The notes under the pieces are model-generated. The model did not search any database. It was not told the DNA's origin and was given only the letters and a program-made list of their open reading frames with translations. Source: Elusimicrobiota bacterium (GTDB taxonomy: Bacteria > Elusimicrobiota > Elusimicrobia > UBA1565 > UBA9628). From it: DNA of 36,085 bases. This document shows positions 13,337-32,411 of the stretch, one piece after another (within the stretch, counting starts at the first letter, position 1; each line of letters begins with the position of its first letter). The DNA lies in contig JAGWJU010000002.1 in NCBI GenBank assembly GCA_028865585.1, forward strand, positions 1 to 36,085, read 5' to 3'. A program made the position numbers and the translations under genes.

Positions 13337-13348
13337 ATTATATCCTCC

Positions 13349-14212: not shown

Positions 14213-14328
14213 AGGTTATCCTCCTCGTGAAAATCCCGCGGCAGCGGCCGGGCCGGACGCAACGCTCGCGCTCACTGACGCAGGATAATGGCAGCCGGAC
14301 CACAAATAGACCAATCCCAAGGACAATC

Positions 14329-14625
14329 TCAGCCACAGAGTGGCACTCGGCTCGCGTCAAACCGGACGCGCGCAGCGTGCTCTTCAAAGCTCACCTCGGC
14401 TTCTCCGACCCCGTTTATGGCGGCAAGAGTCTTCTTGATCCTGGCGGCGCATTTGACGCAGGACATTCCCTCAACCGGAATGATCGCCGTCTTCATGCTC
14501 GCCTGATTTGCGGGAAGATTGGATTTTCGGCCGCAGGCCGCAAGTCCGCCGAAGAGCACATAGGCGCACAGAAGCGCGGCAGCCGCGCTGCCCTCGAAAA
14601 ACGACCAATCAACCTTGAATTTCAT
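14329..14625 (-). CDS. HMA-domain lipoprotein (C-terminally short HMA)
   Basis: Lipobox 'GGLAAC', then 'IIPVEGMSCVKCAARIKKTLAAINGVGEAEVSFEEHAARVRFD'. The domain stops after beta3 ('ASRVPLCG*'). The start forms an ATGA overlap with the regulator stop. Confidence 0.7.
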   Translation of the reverse strand: MKFKVDWSFFEGSAAAALLCAYVLFGGLAACGRKSNLPANQASMKTAIIPVEGMSCVKCAARIKKTLAAINGVGEAEVSFEEHAARVRFDASRVPLCG

Positions 14626-15041
14626 GTTCCATCGCCTCCTTTGTCATCCAGGGACTTCAGGATAGGGCAGCGATCGGTGGTCCTGCGGGCGCAGCAGTTC
14701 CGCATGAGTCCCAGAAGGGTTCTCCTCATGGCTTGAAGGGCGTTGATTTTTGCCTCCACCTCCCGCAGTTTGGCGGCGGCCTTGAGCTTGACCCGTCCGC
14801 TACGGGCCCTTCGGCTGATCCGGAGCTCCAGGAGGTCTTCGATCTCCTTAAGGGTGAACCCGAGGGCTTGGGCGTTTTTGATGAACCGGATTTTCCGGAT
14901 CGCCTCCTCCGCATAGAGCCGGTAGCCGGAGTCCTTATGATCTTCGGGAATCAGCAGGCCTCGGCGCTCGTAGTAGAGCACCGTTTGGATGTTCACATGC
15001 GCCCGCTTGGCCACCTTGCCGATCGTCAATTCTGCCCCCAT
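14622..15041 (-). CDS. MerR-family metal-sensing regulator with Ser at the MerR-Cys82-equivalent position (CueR-like signature)
   Basis: ATG at 15041 with GGAGGG SD; the track start at 15074 would swallow its own promoter. HTH 'TIGKVAKRAHVNIQTVLYYERRGLL'. Loop 'NCCARRTTDRCPILKSL' (C116, C117, C125). 'ARSGRV' aligns to 'AQCGKT' in the paralogue at 24723. Confidence 0.88.
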   Translation of the reverse strand: MGAELTIGKVAKRAHVNIQTVLYYERRGLLIPEDHKDSGYRLYAEEAIRKIRFIKNAQALGFTLKEIEDLLELRISRRARSGRVKLKAAAKLREVEAKINALQAMRRTLLGLMRNCCARRTTDRCPILKSLDDKGGDGT

Positions 15042-15061
15042 GGCTTTCACCCTCCCCATGC

Positions 15062-15093
15062 AGTATAAACCCAATACTATGGTATGGAGTCAA
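15062..15093 (-). promoter_or_regulatory. MerR-type promoter/operator: TTGACT-N20-TATACT with ATAC-N4-GTAT dyad
   Basis: Minus strand reads TTGACTccATACcataGTATtgggttTATACT. The over-long 20-nt spacer is typical of MerR-family activated promoters. 15 of 20 spacer positions are identical to the promoter at 24673-24704. Confidence 0.6.
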
Positions 15094-15203: not shown

Positions 15204-15335
15204 AAAAATTGTACTTTACGCTTAAGCTGCAACAGCTTTAAAGCCTCCGCAGCTCAATGAAGAGAACGCCTGCAACGGCTGCGCGGCGGCCAGGACGCGC
15301 AGGGGGGAAAATAAGACTTTTCCGCATCCGCTACG
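15204..15335. repeat. Copy 1 of a diverged ~130-bp direct repeat (possible structured RNA or regulatory element)
   Basis: Aligns by eye at roughly 75-80% identity to 35950-36080. Shared blocks are AAAAATTGTAYTTTAYGCTTAAG, GCCTCCGYAGCTCAA and AGAACGCCTGYAAC. Contains hairpins AAGCTG-caa-CAGCTT and CGCAGC...GCTGCG. Confidence 0.6.
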
Positions 15336-15576
15336 GATGCTTGAGGCGGGCGATAATCCGTTGGGCGATATCAGGGCGGTTCAATTCATCCGGCCGGCGG
15401 CTCATCATGTGCTTGAGCGCCCGGGAAATCAGGCCCATCTGGCGGGCGAAACGATCGCAGTGGCGGCACATAGCAAAGTGCAGACGAACCATCCAACGCA
15501 CCCGCCGGGGAGCGTTTTGGAACTCTCCCTCGGCCAGCATGCGCGCCACTTCCCGGCAGGAAGGCATGCCCATCAT
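15331..15576 (-). CDS. Small soluble ZAS-type (zf-HC2) anti-sigma factor, RsrA-like
   Basis: ATG at 15576 forms an ATGA overlap with the sigma stop. 81 aa with no TM segment. 'MPSC...(25 aa)...HFAMCRHC' gives C-x25-H-x3-C-x2-C. Confidence 0.75.
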   Translation of the reverse strand: MMGMPSCREVARMLAEGEFQNAPRRVRWMVRLHFAMCRHCDRFARQMGLISRALKHMMSRRPDELNRPDIAQRIIARLKHP

Positions 15577-16163
15577 GACCGTTTTTCCCAATTCCTCTCC
15601 AGGCACTCACGGAGCTTGAGCCGCGCCCGATACATCAGCACCCGTAAATTAGTGTAGGAAACGCCCAAGACGTTACAAATTGCCTCCGCTGATTCGCCTT
15701 CAGCCTCTTTAAGAAAGAACGCGGCGCGCTGGCTTGCGGAAAGGCCCTCCGCGCACTGCTCGATTAGCGTTTGGATTTCAGCGTTGAGCGCCGAATCCTC
15801 GGGGCCTTTCGGCGGGCTGGCCCACATGCCGCGGGCGTTGAAGCGCTTCTCGAACTCGCCTTCAACGGCGTCCAGGCTCTCCTCGCGCCGCCGCTTCCGG
15901 CGCAAATCCAAAGCCTTATTATAAAGGATGCCGAAAAGGTAGGTCTTGAGCCGGGAGCGGCTCTCGAAGCGATCAATCGCCTCCAGAAAGGCTGAAAAAG
16001 TTTCCTGCGCCAGTTCCTCCGCGTCGGCTTGCGAAAAGCCCATCGCAAGACCGGCCGCCATGAGCGCAGGAGTATGCTCGCGAACGAGCCTTTCCATCGC
16101 GCCGCCCTCGCGCCGGCGGAGCGCCGTGATGTCCGCTTCAGCTTCTGTATTCGAGGGCGCCAT
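15573..16163 (-). CDS. ECF-type RNA polymerase sigma-70 family factor
   Basis: Region 2 'FSAFLEAIDRFESRSRLKTYLFGILYNKALDLRR'. Region 4 'LSASQRAAFFLKEAEGESAEAICNVLGVSYTNLRVLMYRARLKLRE'. Start is ATG at 16163 or ATG at 16175. Confidence 0.9.
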   Translation of the reverse strand: MAPSNTEAEADITALRRREGGAMERLVREHTPALMAAGLAMGFSQADAEELAQETFSAFLEAIDRFESRSRLKTYLFGILYNKALDLRRKRRREESLDAVEGEFEKRFNARGMWASPPKGPEDSALNAEIQTLIEQCAEGLSASQRAAFFLKEAEGESAEAICNVLGVSYTNLRVLMYRARLKLRECLERNWEKRS

Positions 16164-16167
16164 AAGG

Positions 16168-16194
16168 TGTAACATTCTAACAGTTTGCCCTACT
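16168..16194 (+). promoter_or_regulatory. ECF-type promoter motif, copy C (TGTAAC-N16-CTACT), upstream of the porin-led operon
   Basis: TGTAACattctaacagtttgccCTACTtatt. Same architecture as the copies at 27749, 28771 and 35868 (minus strand). Confidence 0.55.
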
Positions 16195-16231
16195 TATTTC
16201 CGATGGGGGGAATGAAACGGGAGGCTCGCCG

Positions 16232-17326
16232 GTGAAAAGATTTAAGTTCTTGCTGTTCGCCGCGTGCTTGGCGCCGGTTGCGGCGCCGTCTTTGTGGGCC
16301 GACTCTCCGGGGGATGCGCCGACGACCAGGTACGTGACGACTTCCCGCGGCTCCCTGGGCCTCTCCGGCTCGGTCTATCTTTATGACTACGCCCCGGCCT
16401 TCTCCGGAGCGAGCAACAACTTCGACCTCTACGCCTTCATCCTGAACCTCGACGGCGCTTCAGCCGACGGCAAAACCGGGCTGCACGCCCAATTCCGCTA
16501 CCGCGACACGAGACTGCGCTCCTATTATCTCTCCAACGTTTGGTTCCAGGAGCTCTATGCCTACCGCAAAACGCCCTGGGGAGACGCGCACGTCGGCAAA
16601 TTTTACAGAAAGGTGGGGATACTCTGGGATGACTCGTTCTTCGGAAACATCCAATATTTCAACGGCCTGAAGCTCGCTCCCAATTACGGCGCGGAGTGGG
16701 TGGGGAACAAGCCTTTGGCTGAAGATTTCAGCGTCGATTATTCCGCGCAATTCTTCCCGAATAACAGCAACACCGACGGATCCCTCCCCGGCCGGGACGT
16801 CGACAGCGATCCTCTGGCCAAAATGCGCAATACCGCGACACTGCGCGTAGTCCCAACCTGGACCTGGGGAAAATCCAATTCCATGGCTTTAGGCTTTTCC
16901 GCGCTGAACGCGAGCCTGGACCGCTCTACCTCGACTGCGGGAAATTTCAACATCAACCAGCTCGCGGCCGACGCGACTTTGACTTGGGGGCCGTCCGTGA
17001 CCTATACCGAGATCCTGCGCCAGAACGGGGAGTTGGACACCACGCAAAACACACTGGGACGTCCCGCCTACGATACGGCGGTCTATCTTCTAGCCGGCAC
17101 GCGCTGGCAGATTAATTCCAGGGTAAACCTTCGCTTTAATTACAGCTCGGCCAATTACGTGGGGCAAAATGCCAGGGAAGAGGAATATGTCCCCGGCGCA
17201 GTGGTAAGCCTGACGCAAAACCTCTCCCTAATCGCAGAGTTCGACTACTGGAGGATCCTCTCCCGGACCGGCGGACAGAGCCTGCTTGATCGCAGCTATA
17301 ATACGGTGCTGCGATACGATTTCTAA
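16232..17326 (+). CDS. Outer-membrane beta-barrel, porin-like
   Basis: GTG start 7 nt after GGGAGG. Signal 'FLLFAACLAPVAAPSLWA'. Beta-strand periodicity. C-terminal 'VLRYDF'. Confidence 0.6.
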   Translation: MKRFKFLLFAACLAPVAAPSLWADSPGDAPTTRYVTTSRGSLGLSGSVYLYDYAPAFSGASNNFDLYAFILNLDGASADGKTGLHAQFRYRDTRLRSYYLSNVWFQELYAYRKTPWGDAHVGKFYRKVGILWDDSFFGNIQYFNGLKLAPNYGAEWVGNKPLAEDFSVDYSAQFFPNNSNTDGSLPGRDVDSDPLAKMRNTATLRVVPTWTWGKSNSMALGFSALNASLDRSTSTAGNFNINQLAADATLTWGPSVTYTEILRQNGELDTTQNTLGRPAYDTAVYLLAGTRWQINSRVNLRFNYSSANYVGQNAREEEYVPGAVVSLTQNLSLIAEFDYWRILSRTGGQSLLDRSYNTVLRYDF

Positions 17327-17337
17327 AGGAGGACGAA

Positions 17338-18714
17338 ATGACCCCAAATTCCACCGCAGCGAATAAGACGCCTTCCATCGGCGAGCGCTTGGATCGCTTG
17401 CAATGGCGGCCGTTCCACACGCGGGTCAGTCTGGCTTTAGGAATCGCCTGGCTCTTGGATTCCTTCGAGGTCAATATCATCGGCAACGTGCTAGGCCTGC
17501 TGAAGAAGCTTTGGGCCATCAGCAGCTTTGAGAGCTCGCTTTTGGTCAGCGTCTGGCTGGTAGGTATCATGGTCGGAGCTCTATTTTTCGGTTATCTTGC
17601 CGATCGCTACGGCCGCCGCAAGCTCTTTCTCCTGACCCTGGCGCTCTATTCGGCCTTTACCTTGGCCTCCGCCGCGGCCCCGGGTTATGTCTGGTTCCTC
17701 GTTTTTCGCTTCCTGACCGCCATCGGGGTGGGCGCCGAATATTCAGCCATCAACTCAGCCATCAGCGAACTCATCCCTGCCCGTTTTCGGGGCCGCGCCA
17801 ACGCGACGGTCATGAATTTCTGGCCGGTGGGGGGAATCGCGGCCGCGCTCATCACGAGCTTTCTCATCAATCTCTTGCCGCCGTCCATCGGCTGGCGTTT
17901 GGCCTTCGGTTTCGGCGCCATCATCGCGCTCTTCACGCTTTGGGCCCGCCGAGCGCTTCCCGAATCGCCGCGATGGCTTTCCAAGCGCGGGCTCGATGTC
18001 CAGGCCCGCGGTGCGCTGGCGCAAATAGAGGATGGGGAACGGCGATTCTCCGGTTCGGACCGTGCTCCCGATCGTGCGCCGGGGTTTTGGGAGCAGTTGA
18101 CGGAACTAGTGCGCCGTTGTCCAGGCCGTCTCGCATTGGGTTGCGCGCTCGACTTCTCGGAGGCCTCGGGCTACTACGGCATCTTTGCTTTCCTGCCGTT
18201 AGTCGTTCTTCCGAAACTGGGCATCGCCGAGGGGCGCGTACCATGGTTCTTCATCGTGGGCAATGTGGGAGCGGCTGCAGGTGGGCTTTTAGCCGCCTGG
18301 GCGCTTGATCGCGCCGGCCGCAAAATCACGGTGACGGGCTTCTATCTCTTGGCCGCCGGCGCGATGCTGATTATGGGTGCGGCCTCGCAAACCGGAAACG
18401 TTACGGGCGTGACTTGGGCCTTCATCGCGGCGAACTTCTGCGCCACGGGCAGTTGGATTTCGGCTTATCCCACGTTCTCGGAGATCTTTCCGACCCACCT
18501 ACGCTCGACCGGCATCGGCTTTTCGGTCGCCTTCGGCCGCATCGGAGCGGCCGCAGCGCCTCCGCTTTTGGTCTACCTCGCCGGACGCTGGAGCCCGATG
18601 GCGGCTTTCGCCCTCCTAGCATCTTTCTGGCTCATCGGCGCCGCAGCCATGGTTCCCTGGTGCGTCAAGGGTCCCGAGGCGCGCGGATTGGCATTGGAGG
18701 CGCTGGAGGCATAA
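17338..18714 (+). CDS. MFS transporter (metabolite:H+ symporter-like)
   Basis: AAGGAGGA SD. 'GYLADRYGRRKLFLL' is the MFS loop 2-3 motif. About 12 TMs. Confidence 0.88.
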   Translation: MTPNSTAANKTPSIGERLDRLQWRPFHTRVSLALGIAWLLDSFEVNIIGNVLGLLKKLWAISSFESSLLVSVWLVGIMVGALFFGYLADRYGRRKLFLLTLALYSAFTLASAAAPGYVWFLVFRFLTAIGVGAEYSAINSAISELIPARFRGRANATVMNFWPVGGIAAALITSFLINLLPPSIGWRLAFGFGAIIALFTLWARRALPESPRWLSKRGLDVQARGALAQIEDGERRFSGSDRAPDRAPGFWEQLTELVRRCPGRLALGCALDFSEASGYYGIFAFLPLVVLPKLGIAEGRVPWFFIVGNVGAAAGGLLAAWALDRAGRKITVTGFYLLAAGAMLIMGAASQTGNVTGVTWAFIAANFCATGSWISAYPTFSEIFPTHLRSTGIGFSVAFGRIGAAAAPPLLVYLAGRWSPMAAFALLASFWLIGAAAMVPWCVKGPEARGLALEALEA

Positions 18715-19607
18715 TGGAAGCAGCGGCAAAACCCGTCAATACGGAACAGCGCTATCCTTTTTCGCCCCTGTTCGCTCTCGACACGCTCTGGCTTCAGGTG
18801 GCGGGGACCCTCTGCAACCTGCGCTGCACTCATTGCTTCATCTCCTGCTCTCCGGCCAATCACAGCCATGAAATGATGTCCCTCGAAGATGTGAGGCGCT
18901 ATCTGGACGAGGCACGGCAGATGGGAGTTAAAGAGTATTACTTTACCGGTGGAGAGCCCTTCATGAACAAGGATCTCTTCGCCATGATTGAACTGGCTCT
19001 CAAGCAAGGCCCCGTCTCCATCCTGACCAATGGCCTGCTGATCACCTCTAAAACCGCCGCGCGGCTTAAAAGCCTTTCGGACGCCTCGGACTACAGCCTG
19101 GAGCTGCGCGTTTCCTTGGACGGCTATGACGCCGCGACTCATGACGCGGTCCGGGGCCTCGGCACATTCGGAAAGACGCTCAAGGGCGTCTTAAACCTGG
19201 CCGAGGCGGGCCTCAATCCCGTCATCACCGCGGTCGAGGTGAAGGATGACTTGGGCGCCCGGCAAGGCCGCGAAAAATTCCTGGCCTTCTTAAAATCCAT
19301 CGGACTCACAAAGCCCCGGCTTAAAATACTGCCCATTCTGCGATTGGGAGCCGAAATTCACCGGACGCGCGCCTATGAGGCCTGGGAAAACCTGCGCGGA
19401 CGCGAACTGACGAAAGAAGACGGCTTGGCTCTGCAGTGCTCCTCCTGCCGCATGGCGACGTCCAAAGGCGTCTACGTCTGCCCCTTGCTCATCGATTCGC
19501 CGGACGCGCGCATGGGGGCGACATTGCGGGACTCCCTGCGGCCTTTTGAACTTAAGCATCAGGCGTGCTATACCTGCCACGCCACGGGGTTTTCATGCCG
19601 GACTTAA
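18714..19607 (+). CDS. Radical SAM protein with Cys-rich C-terminal domain (ArsS / TIGR04167-like 'rSAM/selenodomain' family, all-Cys form)
   Basis: The ATG overlaps the MFS stop (TAATG). 'CNLRCTHC' is CxxxCxxC. 'YYFTGGEPF' is present. C-terminal 'CSSC...C...ACYTCHATGFSC' is Cys-rich. The track ORF from 18414 is an upstream extension inside the MFS gene. Confidence 0.85.
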   Translation: MEAAAKPVNTEQRYPFSPLFALDTLWLQVAGTLCNLRCTHCFISCSPANHSHEMMSLEDVRRYLDEARQMGVKEYYFTGGEPFMNKDLFAMIELALKQGPVSILTNGLLITSKTAARLKSLSDASDYSLELRVSLDGYDAATHDAVRGLGTFGKTLKGVLNLAEAGLNPVITAVEVKDDLGARQGREKFLAFLKSIGLTKPRLKILPILRLGAEIHRTRAYEAWENLRGRELTKEDGLALQCSSCRMATSKGVYVCPLLIDSPDARMGATLRDSLRPFELKHQACYTCHATGFSCRT

Positions 19608-20413
19608 ACGGCCGGACCATAGAGGCGGGAGCCTTCAAGAGCGTCGCCTTCATCGGCGGCATCTATTCTAATTATCTCGCCCTGGGAAAAGCGCTCGAGT
19701 TGCTTAAAGGACGGGCGGATACCGTTGTGGCATTGGGCGATTTCGGCGCGTTCGGGCCGCATCCTGACCGAACGCTTGAAATTCTGCGGGAAAGGGAAAT
19801 AGCGGCCATCCGGGGGAACTACGAGGAGGCCTTGGCCGAGGGCGCGGACGACTGCCGCTGCGGCTACACCGATCCGCGCGACAATGAGTTCGCCCGGATC
19901 TCCTACGATTACACAAAAGCGAACACCTCGCGGGAGCACGTGCAATGGATGGGCTCCTTGCCCGCGCATATCCGCTTAAGCATAGCCGGGAAGCGGATTC
20001 TGCTCTGCCACGGCTCGCCGCGCCGCGTCAACGAGTTTCTCTGGGAAAGCGCCACGCCCGAGCCCTTCATCAAAAAAATGCTGGACGACCACGAGGCCGA
20101 CATCGTGGTCTGCACCCACACGGGGCTCCACTGGGCCCGCTTCATAGAGCCGGGCCGAGGCGTGGTCAACGTCGGAGCTCTCGGGCGTCCCGCCAACGAC
20201 GGCGCTCCTCGCGTCTGGACGGCCGTCATCGAGGAGAAGGACGGCGCGCCGGCAGTCCGTTTTTTGCCCGTGGAGTACGATTTCGAGCGGCTGGCGCGCG
20301 AGATGGAGTCGGAAAAGCTGCCGCCCGAGTTCGCCCAAACCATCCGCACCGGCTGGTGGACGACCTGCCTGGAAACGCTGCCCGCCAAGGAGCGGGCCGC
20401 GGGGAAGTTCTAG
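19595..20413 (+). CDS. Metallophosphoesterase (calcineurin-like)
   Basis: 'VALGDFGAFGP', 'IRGNYEE', 'LLCHGSP' and 'VVCTHTG' motifs. Overlaps the rSAM 3' end by 13 nt. Confidence 0.8.
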   Translation: MPDLNGRTIEAGAFKSVAFIGGIYSNYLALGKALELLKGRADTVVALGDFGAFGPHPDRTLEILREREIAAIRGNYEEALAEGADDCRCGYTDPRDNEFARISYDYTKANTSREHVQWMGSLPAHIRLSIAGKRILLCHGSPRRVNEFLWESATPEPFIKKMLDDHEADIVVCTHTGLHWARFIEPGRGVVNVGALGRPANDGAPRVWTAVIEEKDGAPAVRFLPVEYDFERLAREMESEKLPPEFAQTIRTGWWTTCLETLPAKERAAGKF

Positions 20414-20420
20414 CGGCGAG

Positions 20421-21104
20421 ATGAAGATATCAATCATCATTCCCGTTCTAAACGAGAGCGGGACAATCGCCGCCGCGCTCAAGCGCCTCAAAGAGCCCGG
20501 CGAGGCGGAGCCCCCGGAGATTATTGTTTCCGACGGAGGAAGCGCCGACGGCACGCCGGAAGCGGCTCAAAATCTGGCGGACAACGTGATACGGGCCGGC
20601 AGACCCGGCCGCGCGCGGCAGATGCATGAAGGCGCCTTGGCCGCCGCGGGGGAACTTCTGCTCTTCCTTCACGCCGACACCCGCCTGCCGGAAAATTGGA
20701 GGGAAGTTCTGGAGGAAGCTTGGCGCGGACGTCCGCGGCCGGCCGCTGCGGCGTTTCGCCTGCGCTTCGACAGCGATTCATGGTTCTATCGCATTATCGC
20801 CCGAGCTGCCGCTTGGCGCAGCCGGATGACCGGGGTTCCGCTGGGAGATCAGGCTATCGCCGTTTTGCGCGAAGATTACTTCCAGGTCGGAGGATTCCCC
20901 CCGGTGCCGCTGATGGAGGAATACTTTCTCATCGCCAAGCTCAGACGTCTTGGCCCGGTGCTCATCCTGCCCGAGGCCGCCGTCACCTCGGCCAGGCGCT
21001 ACGAAAAAAAAGGCCGCGTTTTCCAGGTTTTAAGGAACGCCTTCATCACCGCCCTATTCTACGCGGGGGTCCCGCCGCGAGTGCTGGCGAAAATTTACCG
21101 ATGA
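20421..21104 (+). CDS. GT2-like transferase ('rSAM/selenodomain-associated transferase 2', TIGR04283-like)
   Basis: 'ISIIIPVLNESGTI...IIVSDGGSADGT...GRARQMHEGA...LLFLHADTRLP' matches my memory of this family. Confidence 0.8.
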   Translation: MKISIIIPVLNESGTIAAALKRLKEPGEAEPPEIIVSDGGSADGTPEAAQNLADNVIRAGRPGRARQMHEGALAAAGELLLFLHADTRLPENWREVLEEAWRGRPRPAAAAFRLRFDSDSWFYRIIARAAAWRSRMTGVPLGDQAIAVLREDYFQVGGFPPVPLMEEYFLIAKLRRLGPVLILPEAAVTSARRYEKKGRVFQVLRNAFITALFYAGVPPRVLAKIYR

Positions 21105-21793
21105 CCCAGCGGCAGGACGCCGTCGTGGTTTTCGCCAAAGCGCCGGTCCCCGGCCGCGTCAAAACAAGACTGTGCCCGCCGCTGTCTTTCGGACAGGCCG
21201 CGCAATTATACCGGGCCTTCATCCTGGACACCCTGGCGTGCGCGCGGAGCATTGCCGGGGTCAAGCTCCTGGTGGCCTACGCCGATGACGGAGCCTCGCC
21301 GGAGCTGAACTGGCTTAAAAATCAGCCCGGCTTTGATTTTTTTCCGCAGGAAGGCGGGGATTTAGGCGAGCGGCTCGTCCGCGCGTTCGACAGTGTTTTT
21401 CAAGGCGGAGCCGGGAAAGCCGTGATCATCGGCTCCGACGCGCCGCAGATCCGCCCCGAGACGATAAGACGCGCGCTGGATTCGCTCTCCGAAAGCGACG
21501 CCGTGCTTGGGCCCGCCGAAGACGGCGGCTACTATCTCATCGGGCTTAAGGAGCGCCGACCGGAGCTGTTCCAGGATGTCCCATGGTCCACGGACAAGGC
21601 CTTCGAGGAGACCCTCACCCGCGCGCGGAGTTCCGGCTTGAAAGTTTCGCTACTGGCGCCGATGGCGGACATGGACACCGTATCGGATGTTATAAACTTA
21701 GGACGCGAATTACGGGGAAAGCCGCCGGAAATTTGTCCCGCAACAGGTGAAGTCATGAATAGGCTTATTACAGGAGGGAAAGAGAGTGCTTAA
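21101..21793 (+). CDS. DUF2064 transferase ('rSAM/selenodomain-associated transferase 1', TIGR04282-like)
   Basis: ATGA overlap with the previous gene. 'VVVFAKAPVPGRVKTRLCPPL' N-terminus and 'GPAEDGGYYLIG'. The track ORF from 20696 is an upstream extension. Confidence 0.75.
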   Translation: MTQRQDAVVVFAKAPVPGRVKTRLCPPLSFGQAAQLYRAFILDTLACARSIAGVKLLVAYADDGASPELNWLKNQPGFDFFPQEGGDLGERLVRAFDSVFQGGAGKAVIIGSDAPQIRPETIRRALDSLSESDAVLGPAEDGGYYLIGLKERRPELFQDVPWSTDKAFEETLTRARSSGLKVSLLAPMADMDTVSDVINLGRELRGKPPEICPATGEVMNRLITGGKESA

Positions 21794-23144
21794 AAAAATG
21801 TCGGCCGCCTTTTTTGTCTGCGCCATCATCGGGTTCGTCGGCGGCGTTTTCTATCTGAGAAAAAAGTATGCGGCGGCGCCGATCATGATGATTCCGGTCA
21901 GAACCTACACCACGTTCCAGTACCCCGAGGACCCGGCCCGCCACAGTTCCCGCTTCGGCTTCTACGACGCGCGCCGCTTGAAGCTCGTCACCAAGGACGG
22001 CGTACATTTTAATTTTATTTTCAAACCGGAAAACGGCCGCACGGCGCGGGTCGTGTTCAAGAACGTGGACGTACGGCTTTTGAGCACGACTTTGCCGGCC
22101 TGGACGAAAAGCGACCCCGCCCTCCAGCGCATCGCCCTGACGGATCGGGAGTGGAACCGGCAGGAAGTGAGCTTTAATCCCCATGGAAGTCATTTTGAAA
22201 TCAGCGGAGGAGACGGATGGGAAAAGGAACACATCTACGCGGCGCACCTGGCCAGGAACTGCCTCAACGCCGGCTTATGGGAGGTTCTCTTGTTCGACAA
22301 GGAGAACGGCCGCAAAACCCTCTACTACCACGGCTGGTTCACCTTTCCGCTGGGCTGGTATCGGAAACTTTTTGAGCGCGAGACCGGATTGGCTTATTGG
22401 AGACACTGGTATTATCTGGAGCACTGGGATAATCCCGCGGGGCTCAAAATGGACCTCTCCAAGCTGCGGCGCATGCTGGCGCAATATCCGGTCGAAGCCT
22501 CGTTCAACCCGAATGAGCCCATCCTGCGAGAAGGCGAACAAATCGACAAGCGCAAGAACATCAGCGTCGAAACATTATCTGCCTGGGGAGACATTCTCCG
22601 CAAGAGTCCGTCCATTCGCTACGCCGCCTTTTTGCCGCCCGGCCGTTATTTCGTGAGCCATCCCTGGGGCAACGAGTACTGGCGGCTGGCGAAATTCGAG
22701 GGGGCCGTTTGGCGCCGGATTATTTCCCCGGCCGGGCCCAAACCTCTTGATGAACTAGAGCTTCAATTCAAAAGCACAAAAGGAGCGCTCAGCCGTTATA
22801 TCATCAGCGGCTTTTCCCTAAGCGCGCTGCCCCGGCTTAAGCTCGAGGACTATCCGAAAGGCCTTTACATGCCCATGGGCATCGGCGTGCCGCCGTTCCA
22901 CCAAAGCTACGAGGATCTGGAGAAAAATCCTCCGCAAAAGACTCCTTATTTCTGCCTGTGGCTCGATTCGCGGGGCCGCTGGATCAACCACCACGAGGGC
23001 GGCATCGACGGCCCCGTCTTATTGCGCGACAAGGACAATCCCGATCTGCTCCATGTCTTCCTTCTCTCCTACGAGAGGCACACCCTGATCGGACACTATG
23101 TGATTCACCTCGGGCATCATGCAAAATTGGGAGGCGCTCGATGA
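21786..23144 (+). CDS. Membrane-anchored protein of unknown function (Trp/Tyr-rich)
   Basis: GTG at 21786, 7 nt after GGAGGG, overlaps the upstream stop; ATG at 21798 is the alternative. One N-terminal TM 'AAFFVCAIIGFVGGVFYL'. 'GWFTFPLGWYRKLFE...YWRHWYYLEHWDNP'. I recognise no family. Confidence 0.6.
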   Translation: MLKKMSAAFFVCAIIGFVGGVFYLRKKYAAAPIMMIPVRTYTTFQYPEDPARHSSRFGFYDARRLKLVTKDGVHFNFIFKPENGRTARVVFKNVDVRLLSTTLPAWTKSDPALQRIALTDREWNRQEVSFNPHGSHFEISGGDGWEKEHIYAAHLARNCLNAGLWEVLLFDKENGRKTLYYHGWFTFPLGWYRKLFERETGLAYWRHWYYLEHWDNPAGLKMDLSKLRRMLAQYPVEASFNPNEPILREGEQIDKRKNISVETLSAWGDILRKSPSIRYAAFLPPGRYFVSHPWGNEYWRLAKFEGAVWRRIISPAGPKPLDELELQFKSTKGALSRYIISGFSLSALPRLKLEDYPKGLYMPMGIGVPPFHQSYEDLEKNPPQKTPYFCLWLDSRGRWINHHEGGIDGPVLLRDKDNPDLLHVFLLSYERHTLIGHYVIHLGHHAKLGGAR

Positions 23145-23959
23145 AATCAATTAGCATTAAAGCGCTGGCTCCGTTAACCGCATGCGCGCTGCTCTTGGCC
23201 TCAGCTCTCTCGGCCGCGGCGTCCGATCAGTCCCACGCCCTGTACGCCGAAGTGCTCAAAGCCTACGTGCATGACGGCCGGGTGGACTACGGAGCGCTTT
23301 CTCGGAAACCCGAAGACTTGGACCTCTATCTTAAAACTTTAGCCGCGGTCCCGCGGGGGGAATTCAAAAGCTGGCCGACATCGGATCAACTCGCCTTTCT
23401 CTTAAATCTCTACAACGCGGCGACTCTGCGCCTCATCGTCAGCCACTATCCTATTAAAAGCATCAAGGACATCGGGCACCTTTGGCAGAGTCCCTGGGAC
23501 TTGCCCGTGGTTCATCTCTTCGGTAAGACCATCACGCTCAACGACGTGGAGCACGGCATCATCCGCAAGGATTACGCCGAGCCGCGCGTGCACATGGCCT
23601 TGGTCTGCGCTTCCAAGGGCTGTCCGCCGCTTCGGGACGAGCCCTACGTCGGCGCGCGGCTCAACGCCCAACTCGATGACCAAGCTCGGGCGTTCCTGCG
23701 CAATCCGGACAAGTTCCGCATCGATCGCAAGGCCGGCGTCGTGTATCTTTCCTCCATCTTCAAGTGGTACGGACAAGACTTCATTCCCCGTTATCTGCCG
23801 GCTTCGGGCTTCGGCTTAGGAAGCGCCAAAGAGCGCGCCAGCCTCCATTTCATCGGCGATTATTTGAGCGCCGCGGATCGCGACTACTTAGCCAAAGGCC
23901 GCTACCGGGTTGATTATCTCGATTACGATTGGTCCTTGAACGAACGGGGCTCGCGATGA
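23141..23959 (+). CDS. DUF547 domain protein, secreted
   Basis: ATGA overlap with the previous gene. Signal peptide. 'VDYGAL...LAFLLNLYNAATL...HYPIKSIKDI...HMALVCASKGCPPLR...SSIFKWYGQDF' is the typical DUF547 pattern. Confidence 0.8.
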   Translation: MKSISIKALAPLTACALLLASALSAAASDQSHALYAEVLKAYVHDGRVDYGALSRKPEDLDLYLKTLAAVPRGEFKSWPTSDQLAFLLNLYNAATLRLIVSHYPIKSIKDIGHLWQSPWDLPVVHLFGKTITLNDVEHGIIRKDYAEPRVHMALVCASKGCPPLRDEPYVGARLNAQLDDQARAFLRNPDKFRIDRKAGVVYLSSIFKWYGQDFIPRYLPASGFGLGSAKERASLHFIGDYLSAADRDYLAKGRYRVDYLDYDWSLNERGSR

Positions 23960-24648
23960 AGCGGGTCAAATGGTTCGGAGCCGCGGTTGCCCTTCTTCTC
24001 TTAATCGTCCTGGCCGGGCATTGGAATGTCCAAGGGTTGCTGCGCCGGTCTCTGGCCGCCATCCAAAACATGGGGCCGTGGGCCCCCGGACTCTTTATCG
24101 GAGCCTACATCGCCGCCACCATCTTATTTATTCCCGGCTCACTGCTCACCTTGGGCGCGGGCGTTCTCTTCGGCGTGCTGTGGGGGACGATCTACGTTTC
24201 CATCGGCTCCGTCATGGGCGCCGCGGCGGCGTTCATTCTGGGGCGCACCCTGGCGCGCGATTGGGTCTCTCGCCGCGTCGAAGCCAACGCGAAATTCAAG
24301 GCCGTCAGCCGGGCCGTGGCCGAGGACGGCTGGAAAATCGTGGCGCTGGTGCGGCTCTCTCCTATTTTTCCTTTTAATCTCCTCAATTATGCGCTGGGGG
24401 TCACCGAAGTTTCCTTTCGAGACTACGTCCTGGCGTCGTGGATCGGCATGCTGCCCGGCACCCTGCTCTACGTCTACATCGGCTCCTTGGCCGGGAATCT
24501 GGCGCGGTTAGGATCCTCCTCGGGGCGCTCCCGCGGCCCCTGGGAATGGACTTTTTACGCCGTGGGCTTGTTGGCCACGTTGGCCGTGTCGCTTTACGTG
24601 GGCCGCATCGCGCGCCGGGCGATGCGCGAGCAGGAAACCCCGGAATAA
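23956..24648 (+). CDS. TVP38/TMEM64 (DedA-related) membrane protein
   Basis: ATGA overlap with the previous gene. 'FIPGSLLTLGAGVLFG...GAAAAFILGR...RLSPIFPFNLLNYALG'. Confidence 0.85.
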   Translation: MKRVKWFGAAVALLLLIVLAGHWNVQGLLRRSLAAIQNMGPWAPGLFIGAYIAATILFIPGSLLTLGAGVLFGVLWGTIYVSIGSVMGAAAAFILGRTLARDWVSRRVEANAKFKAVSRAVAEDGWKIVALVRLSPIFPFNLLNYALGVTEVSFRDYVLASWIGMLPGTLLYVYIGSLAGNLARLGSSSGRSRGPWEWTFYAVGLLATLAVSLYVGRIARRAMREQETPE

Positions 24649-24672: not shown

Positions 24673-24704
24673 TTGACTCTATACTCTAGTATAGGGTCTA
24701 TAAT
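24673..24704 (+). promoter_or_regulatory. MerR-type promoter/operator: TTGACT-N20-TATAAT with perfect 7-bp dyad
   Basis: TTGACT CTATACT-ct-AGTATAG ggtc TATAAT. The dyad lies at 24679-24694. GGAG SD and the merR ATG follow 19 nt after the -10. Confidence 0.7.
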
Positions 24705-24722
24705 TTAACCCAGGAGCGAAAC

Positions 24723-25139
24723 ATGGGCCAACGCTTTACCATCGGGAAAATCGCCAATCTGGCGGGGACCAGCATCCAGACCATCCGTTATTACGAGAGA
24801 TGCCGGCTCCTGCCGCCGAACGGCCGTACGGAGTCCGGCTATCGGCTCTACACGGAGGAAGCGGTCCAAAAACTGCGCTTCATCAAGAACGCTCAGAGTC
24901 TCGGTTTCTCCCTGGCTGAAATCGCGCGCCTGCTGCGACTCCGGGTCGGCTCGCCGGCGCAGTGCGGCAAGACCATGGCGCGCGTGAAGGCAAGACTTAA
25001 GGTTGTCCAGGGCAAGATTTCCGGGCTGCGGGCCATCGAAAGAACTTTGCGGCTTTTGATCCGGACCTGCGCGGCCCGGGGGACGAGCTCCTCGTGTCCG
25101 ATTTTGGAAAACTTCGAAATAAAAGACAGGAGGATATAA
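24723..25139 (+). CDS. merR: Mercury-responsive MerR regulator (all three Hg-ligand Cys present)
   Basis: HTH 'TIGKIANLAGTSIQTIRYYERCRLL'. C81 ('AQCGKT'), C116 and C125 ('RTCAARGTSSSCPILENF', C-x8-C) correspond to MerR C82/C117/C126. Confidence 0.88.
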   Translation: MGQRFTIGKIANLAGTSIQTIRYYERCRLLPPNGRTESGYRLYTEEAVQKLRFIKNAQSLGFSLAEIARLLRLRVGSPAQCGKTMARVKARLKVVQGKISGLRAIERTLRLLIRTCAARGTSSSCPILENFEIKDRRI

Positions 25140-25771
25140 TGGAAGATAAAAACAACGGACGTTTTGTCGGACTCGCCGCGCTGCTCACGGCGGGCCTGGC
25201 TTCGGTCTGCTGCATCGGCCCGCTTCTTGCCGTCGCCTTGGGCTTTGGAAGCTTGGGATTCGCCGCGGGGCTTATCCGATATCGGCCGCTGTTCCTAGCG
25301 CTGACCGCCGTGATACTGGCTTTCGGCTTTTATCAGGCTTATCGCAAACGTTCGGTTGAATGCGCGGACGGAAGCTGCGAGATGCGCTCGGGAAGCCGCG
25401 CGATGAAAACGGGCCTGTGGGTCCTAACCGCCGCCGTCCTGGCCTTGGCGACTTTTCCCAAGTGGTCGGCCTGCCTGCTGGGGCAATGCAAACCTAAAGC
25501 CGCCGCCGGGGCTGCGGCGGCTTCCGTTCCCGCCGGAGCCCAGGCCATAAACCTTGGAATTTCCGGCATGGACTGCGCCGCCTGCACGGTCGAGATTAAA
25601 AAGGACGTGGAAAAATTGCCCGGCGTCTATTCCGCGAACGTTGATTTTTACGCCGGGACGGCGCTGGTTGAAACCAACGGGAAAGTCAACCCTCAAGACG
25701 TGGTGAGGGCGGTCGCGGCCGCGGGATATCAGGCCAAAGTCATTCAGTCAAAAAATGGAGGAGCGCAATGA
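25139..25771 (+). CDS. merT: MerT-MerP fusion (mercuric ion transporter with C-terminal HMA domain)
   Basis: The ATG overlaps the merR stop (TAATG), 5 nt after AGGAGGA. 'LASVCCIGPLLAV' and 'YRPLFLALTAV...CADGSC' are MerT-like. The C-terminal complete HMA domain has 'GMDCAACT'. Confidence 0.85.
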   Translation: MEDKNNGRFVGLAALLTAGLASVCCIGPLLAVALGFGSLGFAAGLIRYRPLFLALTAVILAFGFYQAYRKRSVECADGSCEMRSGSRAMKTGLWVLTAAVLALATFPKWSACLLGQCKPKAAAGAAAASVPAGAQAINLGISGMDCAACTVEIKKDVEKLPGVYSANVDFYAGTALVETNGKVNPQDVVRAVAAAGYQAKVIQSKNGGAQ

Positions 25772-27219
25772 AGCAAAATAACGGGGTGGAAGGACGCGAG
25801 TTCTGGGACGGCGCGACGAAATTCGACTTGGCTGTGATTGGAGGCGGCTCTGGTGCTTTCGCCGCCGCCATCAAGGGCTCGGAGATGGGGGCCAAGGTCG
25901 CCATTATTGAGGAAGGCGTCATTGGGGGCACGTGCTTAAACCGCGGCTGCGTGCCCACCAAGCACCTCATTCGCGCGGCCGAGGTTTATCACTTGGCGCA
26001 GTCCAATCCTTTCGCCGGATTTTCGCTCAAGCGCTCCAAGCTGGACTTCGCCAAGCTCATCGAAAAGAAAGACGCGCTCCTCGATTGGGCCAGGAACGCC
26101 AAGTACTGGGACATCTTGAGGTATCACAAGAACATCAGCTTCATCAGCCGCAGGGCCAAACTGACCGCTCCCGGGCGCATCGACGCCGGAGGAACGGAAA
26201 TCCAGGCTCAAAAAATCATCATCGCGACCGGATCCTCGGCCTTTATCCCGCCCATCGAGGGGCTGGATAAGGTTCCCTATCTGACCAGCACGGAGGCCTT
26301 GAATCTCAAGGAGCTTCCCGGCTCCATGATGGTGCTGGGGGCCAACGCCGTGGGCCTGGAGCTGGCCCAAATGTTTTCCCGCTTCGGGGTCAAGACGGCC
26401 ATCCACGAGATCATGGGCCGCGTGGCTCCTCTGGAGGAGCCCGAGATATCGGACGCCTTGGGGAAATACATTAAGGAAGACGGCATCGAGGTCTGCACTT
26501 GCTCGAAAGTTGTCAAAGCCCGCAAGGAAGGGACGCAAATCGTCATCAGCTCCGAAATGCCCGGCGGGAAAATCAGGGAATTTATGGCCGAGGCGCTTTT
26601 GGTGGCCACGGGCAGGCGTCCCAACACGCGGAATATGGGGCTTGAAGGCCTCGGCGTGGCCATGGACGCCCGCGGCTACATCAAGACCGACGAGATGATG
26701 AAAACATCGGTTGCCGGCGTTTTCGCGGCGGGAGACTGCGTTGGGCCTTACCAGTTCGTCTATACGGCCGCTTATCAGGGAGCGGTCGCGGCCCAGAACG
26801 CCCTGGAAGACTGTTGCGAGCGTAAAATCAATTACGAACAGGTCCCCTACGCCATTTTCACCGATCCGGAAGTCGCTTCCGTGGGATTGAAGGAAGAGCA
26901 GGCCAGGAAGCGCGGCCTCGCTGTTCGGACCAGCATTCTGGATTTCCACTGGGTTCCCCGGGCCGAGGCGATGCTGAACGAGCGGGGCCTCATCAAGATC
27001 GTGGCCGAGGAAAAAAGCCTCAAGCTCCTGGGCGTGCACATCGTGGCGCCCCAGGCCGGAGAGCTTATTCACGAGGCCGCCATGGCCTTGAAATTCGGCG
27101 CGACCGCGGCGGATCTAATCGACGCGCTCCATGTCTATCCGACGCTCTCCGAGGCCTTGAAGATTTGCGCGCAGGGATTCTTCAAGGACGCGACCAAGCT
27201 CTCCTGCTGCGCGGAATAA
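25768..27219 (+). CDS. merA: Mercuric reductase, core form without N-terminal HMA (NmerA) domain
   Basis: ATGA overlap with the previous gene. 'VIGGGSGAFAAA'. Redox-active 'GGTCLNRGCVPTK'. C-terminal vicinal pair 'KLSCCAE', which is diagnostic of MerA. Confidence 0.93.
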   Translation: MKQNNGVEGREFWDGATKFDLAVIGGGSGAFAAAIKGSEMGAKVAIIEEGVIGGTCLNRGCVPTKHLIRAAEVYHLAQSNPFAGFSLKRSKLDFAKLIEKKDALLDWARNAKYWDILRYHKNISFISRRAKLTAPGRIDAGGTEIQAQKIIIATGSSAFIPPIEGLDKVPYLTSTEALNLKELPGSMMVLGANAVGLELAQMFSRFGVKTAIHEIMGRVAPLEEPEISDALGKYIKEDGIEVCTCSKVVKARKEGTQIVISSEMPGGKIREFMAEALLVATGRRPNTRNMGLEGLGVAMDARGYIKTDEMMKTSVAGVFAAGDCVGPYQFVYTAAYQGAVAAQNALEDCCERKINYEQVPYAIFTDPEVASVGLKEEQARKRGLAVRTSILDFHWVPRAEAMLNERGLIKIVAEEKSLKLLGVHIVAPQAGELIHEAAMALKFGATAADLIDALHVYPTLSEALKICAQGFFKDATKLSCCAE

Positions 27220-27243
27220 AAACGGAAAGGAGGAAAAACGAAG

Positions 27244-27432
27244 ATGAAGACAGTTCGCGTTTATGAAGGCTCGTTGTGGTGCAACGGGTGCCGCCACTGC
27301 CCGGTGGTCGACTACGCGCCTGAGGAAGGCCAAGTCGTCATCCATGATCCGGCGAAGCCCAAGAATGGCAAGATGATGATGAGCGTCGAGGAGTACAACG
27401 CCCTCATCGCGCACGCCAAGCCGATCGCATAA
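27244..27432 (+). CDS. 62-aa Cys-rich protein (CxxCxxC), unknown family
   Basis: AAGGAGG SD about 9 nt upstream. 'SLWCNGCRHCPVVDY...VVIHDPAKPKNGKMMMSVEEYNALI'. Lies 24 nt after merA. Confidence 0.6.
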   Translation: MKTVRVYEGSLWCNGCRHCPVVDYAPEEGQVVIHDPAKPKNGKMMMSVEEYNALIAHAKPIA

Positions 27433-27439
27433 TCGGACT

Positions 27440-27471
27440 GGAACGGGCCGGTCGAGAGGCCGGCCTGTTCC
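27440..27471 (+). terminator. Strong hairpin after the 62-aa gene (attenuator or terminator-like; no U-tract)
   Basis: GGAACGGGCCGG-tcgagagg-CCGGCCTGTTCC, a 12-bp stem with one G-U pair. It is followed by 'aaagctt', not a T run. Confidence 0.35.
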
Positions 27472-27508
27472 AAAGCTTAGGGCAGTCATTTGTTCCAAGG
27501 AGGTCGAC

Positions 27509-27574
27509 ATGGGATTTATGGGCTGGGCGGCGTTCCTATGCTTGGCGATGTTGTTGAGCGGCTGTTGCTGTTGA
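27509..27574 (+). CDS. Micro-ORF 1 (21 aa): MGFMGWAAFLCLAMLLSGCCC
   Basis: Below the ORF-track length cutoff. AAGGAGG (27497-27503) lies 5 nt before the ATG. Hydrophobic peptide with lipobox-like L-S-G-C, followed only by C-C and then stop. Confidence 0.35.
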   Translation: MGFMGWAAFLCLAMLLSGCCC

Positions 27575-27590
27575 AGGACAGGAGCGCAAG

Positions 27591-32402: not shown

Positions 32403-32411
32403 GCGCGCAAT

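Follow-up and report, generated by a model that had tools for sequence, protein, structure and literature searches.

The window analysed here, the whole stretch of 36,085 nucleotides (nt) at positions 1-36,085 of contig JAGWJU010000002.1 in the Elusimicrobiota bacterium assembly GCA_028865585.1, contains a nine-gene operon (16232-24648) which, judged from its sequence, is a modular variant of the arsenosugar-type cassette made up of the radical SAM enzyme ArsS and the TIGR04282 and TIGR04283 transferases. The operon is likely to be an arsenic or metalloid cassette homologous to the ArsS system and, with distinctly more reserve, we lean toward the view that it serves metalloid biotransformation, most likely of arsenic, by the full mechanism proposed below. 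An earlier note on this DNA had placed a radical SAM/phosphoesterase/TIGR04282/TIGR04283 cassette within an envelope-spanning operon and had suggested, among other possibilities, a metalloid role; the former is supported by our analysis and the latter is in our judgement the best reading. Missing from that note were the likeness of the phosphoesterase-type protein to the arsenate reductase Car1, the nature of the seventh gene as an insertion, the greater length of the ancestral operon and the arsenic-specific context of related loci.

The operon consists of nine co-directional open reading frames (ORFs) on the + strand, numbered g1 to g9 here: a porin, a major facilitator superfamily (MFS) transporter, a radical SAM protein, a metallophosphoesterase (MPE)-fold protein, a GT2-fold transferase, a DUF2064 protein, an anchored protein of an uncharacterised family, a DUF547 protein and a VTT-domain membrane protein. 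The Pfam and NCBIfam domains recovered across it are MFS, Radical_SAM, Metallophos_2, GT2, DUF2064, DUF547 and VTT. Its junctions are, in order, an 11-nt gap, TAATG, a 13-nt overlap, a 7-nt gap, ATGA, an 8-nt overlap (between g6 and g7, the latter starting with GTG at 21786), ATGA and ATGA; the genes and junctions listed in the earlier note were thus borne out exactly. Shine-Dalgarno-like sequences precede most of the nine starts. The proteins closest to those of the window are named Elusimicrobiota, in keeping with its origin from an Elusimicrobia metagenome-assembled genome. The coupled gene order is retained in four related contigs (L085-L088; labels of this kind denote related loci) at 76-93% nucleotide identity and, consequently, this is a real operon whose arrangement is not due to chance. 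Scanning for sigma-70 promoters and terminators revealed no strong internal promoter or terminator in the operon, and the sigma-70 scan upstream of it yielded nothing relevant.

The radical SAM protein g3 (297 amino acids) possesses the CX3CX2C motif (CNLRCTHC, residues 34-41) and the C-terminal cysteine triad (C285/C288/C295 in the tail CYTCHATGFSC) by which ArsS is recognised. However, it scores only 62.2 bits against TIGR04167 (cut-off 300), with the match confined to residues 22-166, compared with 453-461 bits for the true ArsS proteins of L106, L147 and L170. The earlier note had considered g3 to be of the TIGR04167/ArsS type and would have given this up at a score below the cut-off; for g3 the assignment has indeed to be abandoned in favour of a separate family. 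In the Pfam scan g3 matched only Radical_SAM and Fer4_12 and lacked DUF3641 (PF12345), which is present in the ArsS of L170. Homology nevertheless extends over the full length: BLASTP aligns g3 with ArsS colinearly over residues 22-295, the C-terminal cysteine motif included, and hhalign against 11 true ArsS sequences gave 98% probability (E 1e-13, 243 columns). All 79 g3 family members examined end in C-x2-C-x6-C, in contrast to C-x2-C-x7-C in ArsS, and g3 is 24-27% identical to true ArsS proteins, which share 52-60% identity among themselves. The g3 family forms a clade of its own, maintains ca. 65% identity across phyla and has members in at least 587 species-representative genomes, mainly of Acidobacteriota/Thermoanaerobaculia. 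Pairwise scores resolve four lineages, i.e., g3, an L152/L285 type (34-37% identical to g3 over the full length), the radical SAM domain of fusions with the arsenite methyltransferase ArsM (33%, core only), and ArsS. On this evidence, the g3 family is separate from, and distantly homologous over its full length to, ArsS. ArsL, the other candidate, was rejected for g3 on architecture and tail motif, and a PDB sequence search with g3 returned only weak generic radical SAM matches.

One acidobacterial assembly (ERZ25039533) carries both systems: a CMD-Pyr_redox_3-g3-MPE cluster (L002) and, apart from it, a canonical cassette of ArsM, ArsS and TIGR04282/04283 accompanied by a g7 homologue (L170). 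This co-occurrence of the ArsS cassette with the g3-MPE pair implies that g3 probably makes a product other than that of ArsS or accepts another arsenical as its substrate.

The partner of g3, g4, has the MPE fold, as indicated by its match to Metallophos_2 (44.8 bits, cut-off 27) and its PDB matches (3rqz, 1nnw, 2gju). It adjoins g3 in 77 of the 80 g3-anchored loci examined, mostly via the same short overlap. Among 73 homologues, the D-x-H of motif I is replaced by an invariant G-x-Y (GGIYSN) and the histidine of motif III by tyrosine (GNYE), whereas the canonical enzyme 3rqz keeps DVH and GNHD; four cysteines (C87, C89, C173 and C258) are invariant. Lacking both the D-x-H of motif I and the G-N-H-[DE] of motif III, g4 is not a canonical binuclear metallophosphoesterase, and the previous designation of this gene as a metallophosphoesterase holds for its fold but not for its catalytic residues, in place of which a Car1-like C-x-C is found. 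The MPE-like genes beside true ArsS in L147, L150, L138 and L114 share the signature GG.YGN, RGN.E and C-x-C. For Rufibacter tibetensis it is stated that Car1 is a metallophosphoesterase evolved into an arsenate reductase, for which Cys74 and Cys76 are essential (Shen et al., 2024, Mol Microbiol 122:201, as described in PMC12124457), and ars operons of Paraclostridium (arsR-orf1-acr3-arsM) carry a homologue of Car1 (PMC12124457). A tblastn search of plasmids with g4 retrieved MPE genes of ars operons, whose products are 30-35% identical to g4 from end to end, in the contexts arsR-MPE-acr3-arsM (Paraclostridium), arsR-DUF6428-MPE-GNAT-acr3 (Hymenobacter) and arsC-arsM-arsR-arsH-MPE-arsC (Rubrobacter); a weaker rhizobial match (L284) had no informative gene context. 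In the alignment, C87 and C89 of g4 coincide with C74 and C76 in the proteins from Paraclostridium and Hymenobacter, and the GNY is common to both groups. Because of these ars-operon homologues, the aligned cysteines and the shared GNY, we read g4 as a homologue of Car1-like reductases, with a putative reductase activity.

The two transferases, g5 and g6, both score above the curated cut-offs of TIGR04283 and TIGR04282, respectively (Table 1), as expected from the earlier note. g5 is a soluble protein of 227 amino acids without a membrane anchor, and g6 additionally matches DUF2064 with 127 bits and the PDB entry 3cgx with 113 bits. Literature searches on DUF2064, DUF547 and TIGR04282/04283/04167 did not reveal a functional study.

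To place the operon in a wider context, four sets of loci were compared, anchored on g3 (n = 80), on TIGR04283 (n = 80, from many phyla, located with a four-sequence GT2 alignment, a seven-sequence alignment being too divergent), on radical SAM::ArsM fusions (n = 24) and on g7 (n = 80). The g3-anchored loci contain MPE (77), a Pyr_redox_3 flavoprotein (about 60), DUF2064 (32-44), a CMD/AhpD-like protein (33-40; 117 bits vs. the TIGR04169 cut-off of 120), thioredoxin (18), a PhnS-like ABC transporter (8), ArsM-like genes (7), DUF547 (6), GT2 (4), VTT (1) and a porin (1), and neither MFS nor g7. Around TIGR04283, DUF2064 (adjoining in 56 of the 80 loci) predominates, followed by true ArsS (13-14), NF004991 (12), VTT (11), DUF547 (8) and MPE-like genes (4). 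The fusion loci, from Elusimicrobia, Omnitrophota, Planctomycetota and Nitrospirota, harbor VTT (16), PiT (14), Pyr_redox_2 (13), GT2 (11), DUF2064 (10), DUF547 (9) and the extracytoplasmic function (ECF) sigma factor (9) but no MPE, porin or MFS gene; here the radical SAM::ArsM fusion fills the slot of g3 and g4 on the same scaffold of ECF, GT2, DUF2064, DUF547, VTT and Pyr_redox_2. In other phyla the same gene set, in shuffled order, surrounds true ArsS (L147 and L170) or a g3-like radical SAM protein (L076), and it accompanies another g3-like protein on the plasmid L285. Taken together, the counts for the four locus sets point to a conserved back end (GT2, DUF2064, DUF547, VTT, flavoprotein and redoxin, often linked to an ECF sigma factor) joined to what appear to be interchangeable front ends, i.e., PiT with radical SAM::ArsM, ArsS with or without MPE-like and ArsM genes, or, in the window, porin, MFS, g3 and the Car1-like protein. 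Of the neighbours that had been expected to accompany the cassette, DUF547 and VTT do recur, and are present in every close relative, but are facultative, whereas porin and MFS are kept only in close relatives within the Elusimicrobia.

Several of these loci have features of their own. L285 is plasmid p546-1 of the cultured Roseomonas haemaphysalidis, on which a g3-like radical SAM gene (37% identity), a PhnD-type importer (148 vs. 112 bits) and an MPE-like gene occur together. Directly upstream of this g3-like gene lies a second radical SAM gene (3312-4688, 459 amino acids), whose best matches, both sub-threshold, are the models of the (seleno)protein TrsS and of the tetraether synthase Tes. 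Gene fusions were encountered repeatedly: a VTT::NF004991-like flavoprotein in L147 (6942-9155, 737 amino acids), a radical SAM::ArsM protein in L089 (1565-4222, 885 amino acids) and a TIGR04282::TIGR04283 protein in L170 (12638-13951, 437 amino acids), each half of which exceeds its cut-off.

The link with arsenic derives from the related loci. In L087 and L088 an arsR-arsC-acr3 cluster directly adjoins the operon, and in L003 ArsR and a true ArsM (351 vs. 263 bits) flank DUF2064, an ABC importer and the radical SAM-MPE pair. ArsM-like genes adjoin 7 of the 80 g3-anchored loci, these being acidobacterial, and ArsM-like enzymes with the full set of ArsM cysteine motifs occur next to, or as fusions with, g3-like radical SAM proteins. 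The best match of these ArsM-like neighbours is the arsinothricin ArsM model (344 bits, below the cut-off of 500). The ArsM-like proteins of L055, L077 and L084 (384-453 amino acids) and the C-terminus of the L089 fusion also carry an extra C-terminal domain with a Cys-rich end (e.g., ...CCGPDCC and ...CCAPSAGSSCC). Thiol features are found throughout the system: the tail of g3, the cysteine quartet of g4, C-x4-C in DUF547, CxxC in the redoxin, CxxxxC in the flavoprotein and H-x3-C-x2-C in the ZAS-type anti-sigma factor. The recurrence of phosphate- and phosphonate-type transporters in related loci would suit mimicry by arsenate or methylarsonate.

The front end of the operon is formed by g1 and g2. 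g1 has no Pfam family match, but its AlphaFold2 (AF2) model (pLDDT 82) has 16 β-strands and matches OmpF, PorB, OprP and DcaP (Foldseek TM 0.63-0.66, probability 1.0); with a signal peptide, 16 antiparallel strands, a C-terminal aromatic residue and this fold match, it has the characteristics of a general 16-strand porin, confirming how gene 1 had been labelled beforehand. In L005 and L171, homologues of g1 lie next to DUF2064 and a PhnS-like ABC importer. The MFS transporter g2 reaches 215 bits against TIGR00895, below the cut-off of 419, and has a counterpart only in the close relatives L085-L088; outside these, the porin/MFS position is filled by PiT, PhnS-like or PhnD-type importers. Since binding-protein-dependent ABC systems and PiT hold the equivalent position elsewhere, an import direction is suggested for porin and MFS, although they may instead export a product.

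These observations are combined in the following proposal. The porin and the MFS transporter, assigned by fold and family, would take an arsenical in pentavalent, phosphate- or phosphonate-like form across the envelope, and g4, given its homology, may reduce it to the trivalent state. By analogy with ArsL, As(III) could then be held by the C-terminal tri-Cys tail of g3, which, as in ArsS and ArsL, would form a carbon-arsenic bond with a SAM-derived fragment, probably 5'-deoxyadenosyl. The transferases, with their membership of TIGR04282 and TIGR04283, are predicted to elaborate the product into a glycoside-type conjugate. The exported DUF547 protein, the VTT/DedA protein and g7 would act at the membrane or in the periplasm, and a MerA-like flavoprotein and a redoxin, displaced downstream in the window (see below), may supply or recycle thiol reducing power or handle the product. 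Control of the operon is probably exerted by an ECF sigma factor together with a thiol-rich ZAS anti-sigma factor. To our knowledge, radical SAM enzymes are known to form carbon-arsenic bonds by two routes only, that of ArsS, which transfers 5'-deoxyadenosyl to dimethylarsenite, and that of ArsL. It is conceivable, though we advance this only tentatively, that the g3 family represents a third class of radical SAM enzymes forming such bonds, obligately paired with a Car1-derived reductase and yielding a new organoarsenical, with g7 as a new-fold partner of VTT acting on the product at the membrane.

A number of points weigh against this proposal. Genes for ArsM, ArsR and arsenite efflux are missing from the window, and the immediate neighbours of the operon are mercury and copper-type systems. 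Models of SPASM-type maturases and of Rv1681 give the radical SAM core of g3 higher scores than ArsS does, and the occurrence of the g3-MPE pair together with an ArsS cassette in one assembly suggests that the two are not simply redundant. For g4, the comparison was made with the ars-operon homologues of Car1 and not with Car1 itself, and the Asp and His of motif I, gone from g4, are kept in these homologues. Phosphate-type transporters in arsenic islands can instead serve phosphate acquisition, and the names of TIGR04282 and TIGR04283 derive solely from genomic association. It would also be counter-intuitive for a cell to import a toxic metalloid actively.

Four other explanations were considered. 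Selenium or another chalcogen or metalloid (Te, Sb) might be the substrate, conjugated by the same thiol-rich proteins. Some ArsS and AhpD-like members of the cassette families are selenoproteins (NCBIfam names; PMC9312934), the PhnD-type binding protein of L285 matches a putative selenate-binding model (83 bits, below 250), and a reference listed in PMC10127716 connects a DedA protein with resistance to selenite. However, the specific neighbours of the cassette are arsenic genes, i.e., ArsM (adjacent and fused), ArsR, ArsC, Acr3 and Car1-like MPEs; no selD, selA/B or SenA/B/C-like genes were seen nearby and neither g3 nor g4 contains an in-frame TGA, so that we regard selenium as an unlikely substrate. 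It seems still less probable that the operon is an envelope-stress glycolipid or lipid-carrier system, in which GT2 and DUF2064 build a lipid-linked glycan, the VTT/DedA protein recycles or flips the carrier and the ECF sigma factor senses damage. DedA proteins have been proposed as undecaprenyl-phosphate flippases or scramblases (PMC10127716), and the operon does combine GT2-fold and nucleotidyltransferase-fold enzymes with an exported DUF547 protein, a porin and an ECF sigma factor; yet the TIGR04283 protein is soluble and unanchored, the anti-sigma factor is of the small soluble ZAS type rather than an envelope sensor, and the radical SAM/Car1-like pair, the radical SAM::ArsM fusions, the adjacency to ars operons and the thiol-reductase genes would be left unexplained. 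A phosphonate or reduced-phosphorus pathway, with import of a Phn-type substrate, g4 as a true phosphoesterase and a radical SAM enzyme modifying a C-P or P compound, could draw on the recurrence of PhnS-like, PhnD-type and PiT transporters and on the MPE fold of g4, the nearest structures of which include nucleotide phosphodiesterases such as 3qfm. It is improbable as well, because g4 is without the Asp/His of motif I and the His of motif III required for canonical binuclear catalysis, fusion or adjacency to ArsM and the ars operon context indicate arsenic, neither pepM nor genes of a phn C-P lyase were encountered, and phosphorus analogues are not substrates for the As-dependent radical SAM enzyme ArsL (bioRxiv 10.1101/2024.02.01.577332). 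Finally, a canonical ArsS arsenosugar cassette with g3 orthologous to cyanobacterial ArsS, despite the distant homology and the same partners (TIGR04282/04283, MPE-like, DUF547, VTT and Pyr_redox_2) around true ArsS in L147 and L170, is very improbable in view of the TIGR04167 score, the missing DUF3641, the low identity to ArsS, the separate clade conserved across phyla and the co-occurrence of the g3-MPE pair with true ArsS. A metalloid cassette, most likely for arsenic, thus remains our preferred interpretation.

The remaining genes of the back end are g7, g8 and g9. In L085-L088 g7 is absent and DUF2064 overlaps DUF547 directly, from which it follows that g7 (about 21680-23138) is an insertion specific to the window; contig DAIDHS010000062.1 is 100% identical across it. 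The g7 family nonetheless has at least 958 homologues (ca. 55% identity) in Planctomycetota, cyanobacteria, Nitrospirota, Acidobacteriota and others, without a Pfam model, and approximately half of the best homologues are fusions of ca. 690 amino acids with a VTT/TVP38 domain. Of the 80 g7-anchored loci, 25 have VTT at a distance of up to 10 kb, 16 of them as a fusion or directly upstream, 12 have Pyr_redox_2 and 9 have GT2, and in L170 a g7 homologue stands beside an ArsM-like gene, true ArsS, the TIGR04282::TIGR04283 fusion, PiT and Pyr_redox_2. Given this conserved family, the VTT fusions and the ArsS cassette neighbour, g7 is neither a spurious ORF nor an unrelated insertion. Its AF2 model (pLDDT 88, pTM 0.86) comprises one N-terminal helix followed by a mixed α/β domain. 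With this single helix g7 is not a polytopic membrane protein; of its former description as an unknown transmembrane protein the helix remains, but the rest is a soluble domain of ca. 420 amino acids that is absent from close relatives. A Foldseek search against the PDB gave no match at E < 1e-3 (best E 2.6e-3), the top matches, a PKS dehydratase and TbpB, being unusable at a TM of about 0.13. In g8, the C-x4-C (C156, C161) is conserved across 21 homologues, and a PDB sequence search with this DUF547 protein gave no match. The VTT domain of g9 recurs with Pyr_redox_2, to which it is fused in L147.

Table 1. Coordinates of the operon genes, the control region and the downstream genes of the ancestral operon.
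Feature	Position	Strand	Basis
g1, outer-membrane 16-strand porin	16232-17326	+	Signal peptide, C-terminal ...RYDF, AF2 fold
g2, MFS transporter, sugar-porter/aromatic-acid:H+ symporter-like	17338-18714	+	Sugar_tr 151 bits, MFS_1 139 bits
g3, radical SAM protein with Cys-rich C-terminal domain, ArsS-like but not ArsS	18714-19607	+	Radical_SAM, CX3CX2C, tri-Cys tail
g4, degenerate MPE-fold protein, candidate Car1/Orf1-like arsenate-type reductase	19595-20413	+	Metallophos_2, invariant C-x-C
g5, TIGR04283 GT2-fold transferase	20421-21104	+	235.2 bits vs. cut-off 182, full model length
g6, TIGR04282/DUF2064 CofC-like nucleotidyl/glycosyl-transferase fold	21101-21793	+	205.4 bits vs. cut-off 134
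g7, N-terminally anchored protein with soluble domain (ca. 420 amino acids), uncharacterised conserved family	21786-23144	+	Window-specific insertion
g8, DUF547 protein, exported, possible lipobox	23141-23959	+	PF04784 87 bits; signal peptide MKSISIKALAPLTAC...
g9, VTT-domain membrane protein, TVP38/DedA superfamily	23956-24648	+	PF09335 114.6 bits vs. gathering score 33.9
ECF-type sigma factor, divergent from operon	15573-16175	-	Sigma70_r2 + r4_2; TIGR02937 85 bits vs. cut-off 43
Anti-sigma factor, 91 amino acids, ZAS-type H-x3-C-x2-C	15331-15606	-	NF052368 48.2 vs. cut-off 50
Conserved 30-nt intergenic block GTGTAACATTCTAACAGTTTGCCCTACTTA, candidate promoter/operator	16167-16196	+	Alignment with relatives
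MerA-like FAD disulfide oxidoreductase, NF004991	30885-32402	+	810 bits vs. cut-off 620; directly after VTT in L087/L088
Thioredoxin-fold redoxin, AhpC/TSA/ResA-like, CSSC	32412-32939	+	ResA-like 33 bits; syntenic with L087 14518-15045 (AhpC-TSA/Redoxin)
Class I SAM methyltransferase, not ArsM	32936-33571	+	Only SAM-binding region matches ArsM models, ca. 40 bits
ATP-grasp protein, last coupled gene of ancestral operon	33568-34884	+	Syntenic with L087 15677-16996 (ATP-grasp_4)

The linkage of the operon to an ECF sigma factor, also proposed before, is consistent with the divergent sigma/anti-sigma pair found beside it (Table 1). The sigma factor gene holds the same position in L085-L088, and homologues with 55-68% identity occur in 9 of the 24 radical SAM::ArsM fusion loci. 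The anti-sigma factor contains HFAMCRHC and an upstream cysteine, and an equivalent ORF of 81-91 amino acids is present in L085-L088. The 30-nt block upstream of g1 is identical in the window and L086 and shows 1-2 differences in L087/L088, while its flanks vary; it may depend on the ECF sigma factor.

In L087/L088 the operon continues unbroken past VTT into genes for a MerA-like flavoprotein, a redoxin, a methyltransferase and an ATP-grasp protein. In the window these continuation genes are located at 30885-34884, split from VTT by a merR-merT::HMA-merA operon and a CMD/bufferin-type cluster. On this synteny, the ancestral operon is one that extended to the ATP-grasp gene and was later interrupted by the mer/bufferin insertion. 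The displaced flavoprotein has a CLNVGC redox pair; it is not MerA, since it scores 398 against the TIGR02053 cut-off of 454 and is without the C-terminal cysteine pair. Consistent with the earlier observation that no ArsM is adjacent to the operon, the two methyltransferases of the window (32936-33571 and 34847-35605) reach only 41-47 bits against NF008823 (cut-off 263), lack the ArsM cysteine motifs and are, therefore, not ArsM.

The inserted mer operon (24673-27219; merR, a merT::HMA fusion and merA, the latter 524 vs. 454 bits) begins 25 nt past the VTT gene with a MerR-type promoter (TTGACT-CTATACTCTAGTATAGGGT-CTATAAT, 24673-24704) that has a 19-bp spacer and an internal palindrome. Synteny with L086 17410-20631 places, at ca. 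28196-30888, first a CMD/AhpD-like gene and then a bufferin-type cluster for a ribosomally synthesized and post-translationally modified peptide. The cluster comprises a precursor of the BufA1 family (annotated as such in L085/L086), an MbnB/DUF692 enzyme (352 bits) and a DUF2063/HvfC partner. Bufferin-type gene sets are associated with copper or metal stress. The segment that separates merA from the CMD gene (27234-28096, ca. 860 nt) has no counterpart in the otherwise colinear L086 and overlaps an ORF of 238 amino acids (27968-28684, - strand) without a Pfam match. Elsewhere in the window we noted a CusCBA/Czc-type resistance-nodulation-division (RND) efflux system (6426-12095, - strand; OEP, HlyD_D23 and ACR_tran, 748 bits), a SCO1/SenC-AhpC fusion protein (1446-2606, - strand), five predicted ORFs of 182, 185, 287, 169 and 111 amino acids between the RND system and the anti-sigma gene (12149-15068) and a predicted ORF of 1102 amino acids (2391-5699), the latter six without Pfam matches. 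As a whole, the window looks like a metal-resistance island.

The association of ArsS with TIGR04282 and TIGR04283 is already contained in the NCBIfam names and, therefore, the kind of system is known. What appears to be new is a radical SAM family in the slot of ArsS, its near-obligate pairing with a Car1-like MPE, the modular exchange of front and back ends, including radical SAM::ArsM, and the g7 domain; literature searches did not yield a paper on the g3 family, its MPE pairing, the modular architecture or the g7 domain. The g3-g4 pair has a wide distribution among soil Acidobacteriota (at least 587 species) and also occurs in other phyla; if our interpretation is correct, the abundance of the g3 family in the former could explain unaccounted organoarsenic speciation in soils and groundwater. 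The pair would represent a candidate new route to carbon-arsenic bonds that is directly testable, since the enzyme pair is small and a related system is carried by a cultured organism (R. haemaphysalidis p546-1). Independently, g7 provides a conserved TVP38/DedA-associated domain without a Pfam model or a relative among solved folds.

The operon can be compared with four known systems. As in the DedA/TVP38 proteins of many genomes, the VTT protein g9 is linked, or in related loci fused, to a MerA-like flavoprotein; unlike these, it is tied to a radical SAM/arsenic cassette and to the g7 domain, with no lipid substrate indicated. With the ArsL/ArsM arsinothricin pathway the g3 family shares a radical SAM enzyme with a C-terminal tri-Cys tail, which in ArsL binds the As(III) substrate (bioRxiv 10.1101/2024.02.01.577332), and an arsenic context. 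However, ArsL has 428 amino acids, its CX3CX2C at 194-201 and a RCCLKC tail (PMC8552651; bioRxiv 10.1101/2024.02.01.577332), as opposed to 297 amino acids, a motif at 34-41 and a C-x2-C-x6-C tail in g3, and the window has neither an ArsQ-type permease nor ArsM. With the MPEs of Car1/Orf1 type in ars operons, g4 has in common the MPE fold, the GNY in place of GNH and the C-x-C aligned to Cys74/Cys76; it differs in the loss of the Asp-x-His of motif I, in two extra invariant cysteines, in a C-terminal WW..CLE..LP extension and in being coupled to a radical SAM gene instead of arsR/acr3. The ArsS cassette, the enzyme of which is cited as characterised in Synechocystis in PMC8552651 and bioRxiv 10.1101/2024.02.01.577332, resembles the operon in both transferase families (above cut-off), in the CX3CX2C, Cys-rich C-terminal domain and terminal tri-Cys of the radical SAM protein, and in the accessory set of degenerate MPE-like, DUF547, VTT, NF004991 flavoprotein, AhpD/CMD-like and PiT genes. 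In contrast to that cassette, the operon of the window is without ArsM and has a porin/MFS front end, ECF/ZAS control and an inserted g7 that are not canonical, and the coupling to an MPE-like gene is found in 77 of 80 loci for g3, compared with 4 of 13 for true ArsS.

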